Assembly: GCA_040235515.1 (NCBI GenBank)
Contig: JBECKX010000047.1
Span: forward strand, 1 to 14,058
Source of the DNA: Candidatus Zixiibacteriota bacterium
GTDB taxonomy: Bacteria; Zixibacteria; MSB-5A5; CAIYYT01
Reading direction: 5' to 3'
DNA length: 14,058 bases
A model generated the notes under the pieces. That model saw only the letters and a program-made list of their open reading frames with translations, had not been told where the DNA came from and did not search any database. Every line of letters starts with the position of its first letter. The first letter of the stretch is position 1. Position numbers and translations under genes: made by a program. Of the stretch, positions 1-3,268 are shown one piece after another.

Positions 1-1512
1 CTCCTGTTGCTGGGAGTGCCGGGCGGCAACAAGCAGGCAATCAAGATGCTCACCCTGGTGACGTCGCTGGTCACGTTCCTTTTCTCCCTTTATCTCTGGA
101 TCAACTTCGTGCCCGGCACACCGAACATGCAGTTCGAGTTCAAACAGAACTGGATTAGCGCACTCGGGGTAAGCTACCACGTCGGCATCGACGGTATCAG
201 CCTCCTGCTGATTCTGCTCACGACGCTCCTGACCGCCATCGCAGTACTCGGAGCCTGGAACTCCGTCGAGGATCGCCTCAAAGGCTTCATGGTCTCGATC
301 CTGATCCTCGAAACAGGTATGCTCGGCGTCTTCGTTTCGCTCGATCTCTTCCTCTTCTATATCTTCTGGGAAGTCATGCTGGTTCCGATGTACTTCCTGA
401 TCGGCATCTGGGGTGGAGTCAGGCGCATCTACGCCGCAATCAAGTTCGTGCTCTTCACCATGTTCGGCTCGCTGCTGATGCTGGTCGCGATCGTCGCGCT
501 CGTTATCCTGAACTACAAAGCTACCGGAGCTTACAGCTTCGATCTGAATTCTTACTACGACCTCGCCCTCGCACCCGGTGTGCAGATGTGGCTCTTCGCG
601 GCCTTTGCGCTGGCATTCCTGATTAAGGTGCCGGTCTTCCCATTCCATACCTGGCTGCCCGATGCCCACGTGCAGGCGCCCACCGCCGGCTCGGTTATCC
701 TTGCTGGTGTGTTGCTCAAGATGGGTACCTATGGTTTCCTGCGCTACTGCATCCCGATGTTCCCGAACGCCTATGAAAGCTTTATTCCCCTGATTGCGGT
801 GCTGGCGCTGATCGGCATCATCTACGGGGCTCTGGTGGCGATGGTGCAGAAGGACGTCAAATCACTCGTCGCCTTCTCGTCGGTGGCGCACATGGGTTTC
901 GTGATGATCGGCATGGTCGCAATGAACCAGCAGGGCCTGGAGGGAAGTATCCTCCAGATGCTCAATCACGGTATCTCCACCGGCGCGTTGTTCCTGATCG
1001 TCGGAATGATCTATGAACGCCGGCACACCCGCATGATCTCTGATTTCGGCGGCATCTTCAAAGTAATGCCCGCCTACGCGACGATCTTCATGATCGTGAC
1101 CCTTTCCTCGATCGGCCTGCCCGGCACCAACGGCTTCGTAGGGGAGTTCCTGATTCTGCTCGGTACTTTCAAGATGAACATCACCTACGCCGTGATCGCT
1201 ACCTTCGGAATTGTCCTGGCAGCAGCCTATATGCTCTGGATGTTCCAGCGTGTCGTGTGGGGCAAAGTCGAGAATCCCGAGAACCAGAACCTCAAAGATA
1301 TGTCTGCGCGGGAGTGGGTGGTCGTCATGCCCTTAGTGCTCCTGATCTTCTGGCTGGGCGTCTACCCCAAGCCCTTCTTCAAAGCTATGGAACCCTCCGT
1401 CCTGAATCTGATGCAGGAGGTTGAAGCTAAGAAGATCAGAATCTCGCAGGAATTCGAACTGACCGACAGCCCGGCCTGGGTTATGACTCAAACGAGGGAA
1501 GGGGCTAGATAA
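1..1512 (+). CDS. nuoM: NADH-quinone oxidoreductase subunit M (5'-truncated by the window edge)
   Basis: The frame is open from base 1 (CTC CTG TTG CTG) to TAA at 1510-1512. Highly hydrophobic, with antiporter-like subunit motifs [39 protein letters not shown] and [15 protein letters not shown]. Lies upstream of nuoN. Confidence 0.96.
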
Positions 1513-1514
1513 CG

Positions 1515-1739
1515 ATGGCAAAAATCACGATCTACACGAAAGTTGGCTGTCCCTACTGCGCTGCAGCGAAGAACTACTACGAGCAGGAGGGCATAGAATA
1601 CGATGAAATCGATGTCAAACAGGATGCCGCCGCCGCCAAACGCGCAGAGCAACTCGCCAACGGAGCGCGCCGCGTACCGGTAATCGTCGAAGGCGACAAA
1701 GTCACTATCGGCTTCAGAGGAGGCTCGTGAGGATTCTAA
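1515..1739 (+). CDS. Glutaredoxin-like probable selenoprotein (UXX-star type), 74 aa, C-terminus GFRGGS-U-GF. The ORF track stops it at TGA 1728-1730.
   Basis: CPYC active site plus RVPVI and GF motifs of the glutaredoxin fold. The in-frame sequence is TCG TGA GGA TTC TAA (TAA 1737-1739), followed by a SECIS-like hairpin. The glutaredoxin call is firm; Sec readthrough is inferred. Confidence 0.85.
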
Positions 1740-1766
1740 CGCAGACGGCAGGTGGTCGTCACGATT
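1740..1766 (+). promoter_or_regulatory. Putative bacterial SECIS element
   Basis: Stem GACGGC (1744-1749) pairs with GTCGTC (1755-1760), with one G-U pair, closing loop AGGTG (1750-1754). The loop starts after a 19-nt spacer from the UGA. CAGGU resembles the apical region of the E. coli fdhF SECIS. The stem can be extended imperfectly via CG 1740-1741 / CG 1762-1763. Confidence 0.72.
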
Positions 1767-1813: not shown

Positions 1814-3268
1814 ATGATAGAAATTCCATCAGTTGACCTTGGTTTGTTGGCACCCAGCCTTACCGTTTGTATTACCGGGCTGATTGCAATGCTGCTCGTG
1901 CCGTTCCTCAAGAACGAGATGCAGGACTTTGTCGCGCACATCAGCTGGCTCGGTCTGATCATCGCGCTCTGGTTCGCCTCCAATCAAATCGGAATCAACG
2001 AAACTACCTTCGCTGGTCAGTTCCTCGCGGATGACTTCAGCCAGTTCTTCAGCCTGATCTTCCTGCTCGGTTCGATCCTGACTGTCTTTATGTCGATGGA
2101 TTACCTCAAGCGCAAGAAGAACAACCATGGCGAATTCTATCCGCTCATCCTCTTTGCGACTTACGGCATGATGGTGATGGCTTCGAGTGCCAATCTGCTC
2201 GTTATCTTCCTCGGCCTGGAGATCATGTCGATCTCCCTCTACGTGCTCGCCGGCTTTGCCCGTGAATCGCTCAGGTCAACCGAGGCTTCCGTCAAGTATT
2301 TCCTGCTTGGCGCCTTTGCCACCGGCTTTACGGTCTTCGGCATCGCCTTCCTCTACGGCGTGACCGGAACCTTTGAGATCTCAGATGCCGTTCGCTATCT
2401 CCAGCAGACGGAATCTATCGATACATTGTTTTTGATCGGCGCCGGCCTCCTCATCATCGGCTTCGGTTTTAAGGTAGCCGCGGTGCCGTTCCACATGTGG
2501 GCCGCAGACGCCTACGAAGGCGCACCCTCACCGGTGACCGGATTTATGTCAGCCGGTCCCAAAGCGGCCGCTTTCGCTGCGCTGCTGAGAATGTTCGCCT
2601 TTGGACAGGTCGAGACGCTGCCCAATATTGAAACCCTCTTCTGGATCCTCGCCGTCGCGACGATGACCGTCGGCAACATTATGGCGCTCCGCCAGGATAA
2701 CATCAAACGAATGCTGGCATTCTCCTCGATCGCCCACGCAGGCTACATCCTGATCGCACTCGTGGTGGGGAATGCTGAATCCGCATCCGCAGCAGCGCTC
2801 TATCTCCTCTGCTATGCCATGACCAATCTTGGTGCCTTCATGATCATCACGCTTGTCGACTCAAGCAGCGAGAAGGAAGTCGCCAACGTCGAAGACTATA
2901 CCGGCCTCGGCCGCTCGCGGCCATTGCTGGGCATCCTCCTCACGATCTTCATGATCTCACTGGCTGGATTCCCGCCGACCGCCGGCTTCATCGGCAAGTT
3001 CATCCTCTTCAAAGCGGCAGTCTCGCAGGGCTTCTATACGATTGTCGTCATCGCGGTGATCAACAGCCTGATTTCAGTCTTCTACTATCTGCGCGTCGTC
3101 GTGCGCATGTTCATGGCCGAAGCCGATACCGAGCCTGTGAAGGTACCAAAGGTACCAGCCTTCATGACCGTAGCGCTCATCTTCGCCATCGCCGCAGTCT
3201 TCCTGCTCGGTGTCTACCCGCAGGGCTGGTTCCCGTTTGATGGCCTCGCAACGATCTTGATGCCTTAA
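1814..3268 (+). CDS. nuoN: NADH-quinone oxidoreductase subunit N
   Basis: 484-aa hydrophobic protein with motifs GLEIMS, EASVKYFLLGA, GFKVAAVPFHMW, KRMLAFSSIAHAGY, SLAGFPPTAGFIGKF and YYLRVV. Last nuo gene before the convergent purF. Confidence 0.96.
   Translation: MIEIPSVDLGLLAPSLTVCITGLIAMLLVPFLKNEMQDFVAHISWLGLIIALWFASNQIGINETTFAGQFLADDFSQFFSLIFLLGSILTVFMSMDYLKRKKNNHGEFYPLILFATYGMMVMASSANLLVIFLGLEIMSISLYVLAGFARESLRSTEASVKYFLLGAFATGFTVFGIAFLYGVTGTFEISDAVRYLQQTESIDTLFLIGAGLLIIGFGFKVAAVPFHMWAADAYEGAPSPVTGFMSAGPKAAAFAALLRMFAFGQVETLPNIETLFWILAVATMTVGNIMALRQDNIKRMLAFSSIAHAGYILIALVVGNAESASAAALYLLCYAMTNLGAFMIITLVDSSSEKEVANVEDYTGLGRSRPLLGILLTIFMISLAGFPPTAGFIGKFILFKAAVSQGFYTIVVIAVINSLISVFYYLRVVVRMFMAEADTEPVKVPKVPAFMTVALIFAIAAVFLLGVYPQGWFPFDGLATILMP

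Follow-up and report, generated by a model that had tools for sequence, protein, structure and literature searches.

A short open reading frame lodged between the complex I genes nuoM and nuoN raises two questions, namely whether the TGA that closes it is a stop or a selenocysteine (Sec) codon, and what a small selenoprotein might do in a respiratory operon. The frame lies in a 14,058-nt stretch of contig JBECKX010000047.1 from a Candidatus Zixiibacteriota bacterium (GCA_040235515.1; hereafter the window) and comprises 71 codons, running from an ATG at 1515 to a TGA that ends at 1730, after which GGA, TTC and TAA follow in frame (Table 1). A sequence-only reading of the window had proposed that the TGA is recoded, that the product is a glutaredoxin-like protein of 74 aa belonging to the Uxx-star selenoproteins, and that a SECIS-like hairpin lies beyond the true stop. 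The layout it relied on, a TGA followed by two codons, a TAA and a hairpin whose loop begins 19 nt downstream, is present just as it described. The placement between nuoM and nuoN was missing from that reading and emerged from the follow-up analysis.

Table 1. Features of the nuoM–nuoN region, in window coordinates.
Feature	Position	Strand	Evidence
nuoM, complex I membrane subunit M	7..1512	+	TIGR01972, 628 bits (cut-off 263.8)
Predicted selenoprotein gene of the glutaredoxin-like Uxx-star family (74 aa, TGA as Sec)	1515..1739	+	NF041212, 110.2 bits; conservation; Grx/NrdH fold
CPYC active-site motif, C12–C15 (residues 12–15)	1548..1559	+	Conserved among homologues
UGA codon, Sec72 (predicted)	1728..1730	+	TGA in 85/85 loci, next stop variable
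Gly-Phe codons GGA TTC, then true stop TAA (1737–1739)	1731..1739	+	Gly codon varies synonymously
SECIS-like hairpin, nuoN-proximal intergenic region	1744..1760	+	Loop AGGUG, 19 nt after UGA
nuoN, complex I membrane subunit N	1814..3268	+	TIGR01770, 452 bits (cut-off 332.6)

Translated with TGA as Sec, the redoxin is 74 aa long, ends in GGS-U-GF and matches the NCBIfam model Uxx_star (NF041212) over its whole length with 110.2 bits (cut-off 66), as compared to 104.2 bits without read-through, which supports both the product length and the family that had been proposed. It also scores just above the cut-off of UXX-star family 1 (NF041114; 78.1 against 72 bits) and below that of family 2 (NF041211; 84.3 against 100 bits). 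PMC13188914 (Table 1) gives family 1 an N-terminal UxxT motif and two Sec residues, whereas the redoxin has CPYC and a single Sec. The same source lists the Uxx-star family, names Haft and Tolstoy (2025) as the origin of family 2, calls the role of Uxx-star unresolved and proposes that of a metal ligand (PMC13188914). Judged by its sequence, the redoxin, whose gene is present in one copy in the genome, is a real and very probably Sec-recoded member of this known, already catalogued family. As anticipated for standard gene callers, the Sec is overlooked in the databases: all 14 proteins returned stop right before the Sec position, including the window's own, which is deposited with 71 aa, and the four named entries among them are called glutaredoxins.

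The codon evidence comes from 85 genomes with distinct, strong matches, the window's included, which form a subset of the carriers; five weak-match loci (L180–L184) had been dropped beforehand and were rejected as Uxx-star loci, four being other redoxins away from nuo and one having no match. All 85 carry TGA at the Sec position, while the stop two codons further on varies (TAA 52, TGA 20, TAG 13), the codon after the TGA encodes Gly in 78 of 85 (GGA 46, GGT 13, GGC 10, GGG 9) and the final residue is always F, Y, I or V. With the next stop free to vary and the tail codons changing in the manner of coding sequence, this fixed TGA does not behave as a true stop. An alternation between TGA and Cys codons, which the sequence-only reading had suggested looking for, was not observed: a Cys codon at the Sec site occurs in none of the 85 loci in the phylum, none of 66 homologues outside it and none of the 14 database proteins. 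The profile aligns the Sec position to GGC of one Grx3-type structure (4tr0), but across a gap.

RNAfold returns exactly the hairpin that had been described (GACGGC-AGGTG-GTCGTC, loop beginning at 1750), with -8.2 kcal/mol including flanks and -6.7 kcal/mol for the bare stem, and the hairpin lies past the TAA, as had been claimed. The bacterial SECIS (bSECIS) model, as given in a figure legend of PMC13188914 (Fig. 2A), allows a loop of 3–9 nt, a stem of 4–16 bp, a G in the first two loop positions, a distance of 16–37 nt from the UGA and an MFE of at most -7.5; with a 5-nt loop, a 6-bp stem, a G at loop position 2, 19 nt and -8.2 kcal/mol, the hairpin falls within all of these ranges. Compared to shuffled sequences, its fold is not beyond chance for 1728–1766 (z -0.55; 54/200), 1740–1766 (z -1.91; 11/200) or 1728–1790 (z -1.74; 11/200), and the support for it comes from its conservation. 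A hairpin of -5 kcal/mol or lower, with a G at loop position 1 or 2 and a loop 14–24 nt past the TGA, is conserved in 77 of the 85 loci as against 3.9% of 4250 shuffles. Among 33 of the 85 sequences, hand-picked for good alignment, all six pairs are altered on both sides by compensatory changes, and 96% of the cells of the hairpin alignment pair, compared to 75% after shuffling (0 of 500 as high) and 27–50% in slid controls, figures that lean favourable, as the window supplied the structure and the sequences are kin to each other. Two DNA runs of a single study provide contigs (X1, 1643–1891; X2, 1558–1805), possibly derived from the source sample, that cover TGA and hairpin and show no difference there. 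The fold of 1728–1790 also contains a 7-bp lower stem right after the UGA (1731–1737 with 1780–1786), and comparable stems occur in only a few close relatives. Located outside coding sequence, the 85 aligned hairpins offer clean material with which to refine the bacterial SECIS model.

The genome of the window (3.59 Mb, 100% complete) contains selA, selB, selC (tRNA-Sec) and selD, all over their cut-offs, with selA split across two contig ends. In relatives, selA was found in 58 of 60 genomes, and the two misses are genomes of 89% and 52% completeness. SelD (contig C60, L011:1396-3612) is of the Cys form (GCAC) and part of a 738-aa fusion protein, with a NifS/IscS-like cysteine desulfurase domain at the N-terminus. 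Directly upstream of selC-selA lie bshC, bshA and bshB1 (contig C64, L235:1175-5005, minus strand), and selB is located on contig C173, which continues from this bsh-selC-selA contig. A genome-wide hairpin scan yielded 1306 candidates, mostly noise, and one convincing second selenoprotein. This probable selenoprotein (contig C77, L279:220-948) is peroxiredoxin-like, with a W-U-P-Y-C motif and a hydrophobic N-terminus; the UGA of its gene is immediately followed by a strong hairpin (z -2.92), and every NCBIfam match of the protein is below cut-off. Three of the rejected weak-match loci (L180, L182 and L184, in G021, G042 and G053) encode small redoxins with an N-terminal UxxC, away from nuo; two of them belong to genomes whose nuo operon lacks the Uxx-star gene. 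As to the central claim of the sequence-only reading, Sec machinery is present, no locus of the 85 has TAA or TAG at the Sec codon, the next stop is variable and the hairpin is conserved. By this comparative evidence, recoding of the UGA at 1728–1730 is nearly certain.

An AlphaFold2 model built from 81 sequences with Cys in place of Sec (pLDDT 92.4) predicts a Grx/NrdH fold, and the top Foldseek matches are Grx and NrdH structures with TM-scores of approximately 0.74–0.81 (PDB 3zij, 7c10, 1h75, 4tr0). The active-site motif is CPYC in 74 of the 85 loci, CPFC in 6, CPHC in 4 and CPYS in 1, and C12, P13, V54, P55, G70 and U72 are invariant in 81 aligned homologues, while identity among relatives drifts to 40–64%. 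No helix follows residue 47 in the model. The Gly-rich tail had been called flexible, a description that the model speaks against: residues 71–74 are predicted to be ordered (pLDDT 88, with Cys for Sec), and DSSP assigns strand or bridge to 53–54 and 72–73. In thioredoxin-fold enzymes, the backbone of the substrate pairs with the residue that precedes the cis-proline. Combined with the DSSP bridges and the invariant Val54-Pro55, this pairing suggests that the tail lies in the substrate groove and brings Sec72 to Cys12. Regarding the thiol that such a redoxin might encounter, bshA, bshB1, bshC and BrxA/B are over cut-off in the genome and no glutathione synthetase (gshB) is, so that bacillithiol is a more likely small thiol than glutathione. 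A YpdA/Bdr match at a contig end reaches 168 bits (cut-off 339.9).

The placement of the gene is the only part not already catalogued. Among the 85 genomes, which span 11 families and 53 genera, the redoxin gene has nuoM on one side and nuoN on the other in 82, within a complex I operon of 14 genes, and in the remaining three a contig end cuts off one flank; relatives with long contigs have the gene order nuoA-M, redoxin, nuoN. In the genome of the window, nuoA-L are found at the end of contig C90 and nuoM at the start of the window contig. Here the nuoM stop precedes the redoxin ATG by 2 nt, and in 77 of 84 measurable loci the redoxin starts between -14 and +13 nt from that stop. This tight spacing, together with the failure to find a terminator-like site between nuoM and nuoN, points to co-transcription and translational coupling to nuoM. 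A second nuo cluster of the same genome (contig C120, L063) consists of nuoK-L-M-N without redoxin; its NuoM is 49% identical to the window's and its nuoN begins 4 nt past the nuoM stop. Two NuoM are likewise present in most of the relatives searched. The redoxin was matched in 43 of 61 genomes in an initial search of relatives, and 150 of 221 genomes of the phylum Zixibacteria pass the NF041212 cut-off. No description of Uxx-star within nuo was found in the literature searched, the coverage of which is incomplete, and term searches of PMC13326102 and PMC2398784 returned nothing on such a placement; it thus appears to be undescribed.

To judge from the several lineages without the gene, the redoxin is dispensable. 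The match was weak or lacking in 22 genomes; in 18 of them, from eight families, nuoN directly follows nuoM, and in four without a strong match (G001, G010, G027, G036) the site is uninformative because nuoM runs off the contig. The genomes in which nuoM abuts nuoN have selA, and soluble-arm genes are part of the same operon in 11 of 17 fetched non-carriers. Mapped onto a NuoM tree of 61 rows, redoxin presence requires 4 changes as compared to a mean of 18.5 after shuffling; as this is a quick tree with rows chosen by hand and unsettled deep branches, one gain followed by losses and several gains are inseparable on it. Presence is clustered on the tree, and the 85 loci are therefore not independent. 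A column-by-column comparison of NuoA-N between carriers and non-carriers revealed no residue that separates them cleanly and no subunit extension that tracks the redoxin; the distribution of Cys101 of NuoF, present in 21 of 28 carriers and 1 of 10 non-carriers, coincides with one large clade. The operon itself varies in other respects. A methyltransferase-like ORF of approximately 240–250 aa, so labelled by eye from a sequence motif, lies between nuoL and nuoM in L246, L248 and L250 (G044, G051, G058), three genomes in which the redoxin was not found; nuoI is absent from the operon in L242, L243 and L257 (G046, G053, G023), and in family f9 (L251, L252, L254, L255) the stretch fetched holds only nuoJ-N.

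Outside the phylum, neither nuoM nor nuoN was present in the fetched flanks of any of 79 loci. The neighbors there are heterogeneous, several of them of arsenic or metal type: among the 68 of 101 neighboring ORFs that were scanned are PF01758 transporters in five loci, ArsR in two, an ArsP permease and a heavy-metal ATPase. The commonest form among the outside homologues (42 of 66) combines UxxT with the C-terminal U and has no resolving Cys, which fits a tail that acts as partner of the N-terminal residue. In a deltaproteobacterial subgroup, often beside arsenic-resistance-type genes, the tail is approximately 10–14 residues longer (L100, L105, L106, L113, L115, L116, L127, L138, L141, L149, L166, L168).

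What the redoxin might do for complex I can be outlined as follows. The conserved hairpin, 15–23 nt downstream of the UGA, is very probably bound by SelB, with Sec inserted at the UGA, whereas without selenium the ribosome would stop and release a 71-aa protein lacking the tail. By its spacing, the gene would be co-transcribed with nuoM and its translation coupled to it. In the product, the ordered tail may fold back next to Val54-Pro55, into the substrate groove of the same protein, and bring Sec72 near Cys12, as suggested by DSSP for one model, and a Se-S bond between the two residues could relay electrons to or from the CxxC site. Putative clients are oxidised or bacillithiol-modified cysteines on the soluble arm of complex I or on proteins exposed to its reactive oxygen. 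We give about even odds (a probability of roughly 0.5) to this main reading, according to which the redoxin is made with complex I and repairs oxidised thiols on or near it. In a bolder form, which we consider unlikely, the redoxin would be a dedicated fifteenth complex I component of most Zixibacteria, either a bound subunit or a repair enzyme of the soluble arm, and selenium supply would tune respiration via a recoded tail of three residues that docks in its own active site.

A less specific explanation, tentative in our view but to be taken seriously, is that an authentic selenoprotein, whose role would be a general one in redox chemistry or metal/metalloid binding, entered a strongly expressed operon early on and has been inherited there ever since, without any special link to complex I. 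The mixed, partly arsenic- or metal-type neighborhoods outside the phylum fit this explanation, as does the metal-ligand role proposed for the family (PMC13188914), and the presence of other inserts in the nuo operon, the non-independence of the clustered loci and the lack of any co-varying Nuo residue point in the same direction. Against it, no relocated copy was found among the 85 genomes, and the tight spacing has been kept over 53 genera despite the drift of the protein itself. Quite improbable is a third possibility, that the redoxin sits permanently on the soluble arm as a stoichiometric accessory subunit, serving as redox sensor or stabiliser. Operon position and coupling would supply it in subunit-like amounts, and the mitochondrial complex I subunit B8/NDUFA2 has a thioredoxin fold. 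A bacterial precedent is MSMEG_2064, a subunit encoded in the mycobacterial nuo operon (PMC10068793). Yet the redoxin is missing from operons that are otherwise alike, no extension or residue of a Nuo subunit tracks it, and its invariant residues are those of a generic redoxin active site and do not form a distinct surface. Finally, that the TGA is an ordinary stop of a 71-aa NrdH/Grx-like protein and the hairpin incidental can be dismissed almost entirely, since the hairpin's failure against shuffles, the lack of a Cys variant and the 71-aa database entry are outweighed by a TGA that stays fixed while the next in-frame stop varies freely, two tail codons that vary like coding sequence, a covarying hairpin at fixed distance with a G-led loop, the Sec machinery of the genome and the gain in HMM score on read-through.

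Returning to the main reading, its interest lies in the fact that Uxx-star is widespread and of no established function, and that gene callers cut it short in every one of the 14 database entries; the fixed and apparently coupled place in the complex I operon offers a concrete candidate client. If the link holds true, the redoxin would be a selenoprotein in the service of bacterial complex I, and if it is a passenger, an ordinary missed selenoprotein.

Compared to known systems, the redoxin shares with Uxx-star (NF041212) the Grx-like domain and the Sec third from the C-terminus, and at the protein level nothing distinguishes it from this family; only the position between nuoM and nuoN sets it apart. 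With UXX-star family 1 it has the fold and the U-x-x-stop tail in common. Dithiol glutaredoxins and NrdH-redoxins likewise have the CxxC motif and the Val-Pro loop, but differ from the redoxin model in that the latter is free of helices past residue 47 and its chain ends in a Gly-rich Sec tail. MSMEG_2064 of mycobacteria is similar in being encoded by a non-core gene that a single lineage has in its nuo operon (PMC10068793); however, it has a response-regulator fold, is located at the 5' end of the operon and is a subunit by cryo-EM, whereas the redoxin is encoded by an internal gene and is a candidate subunit.
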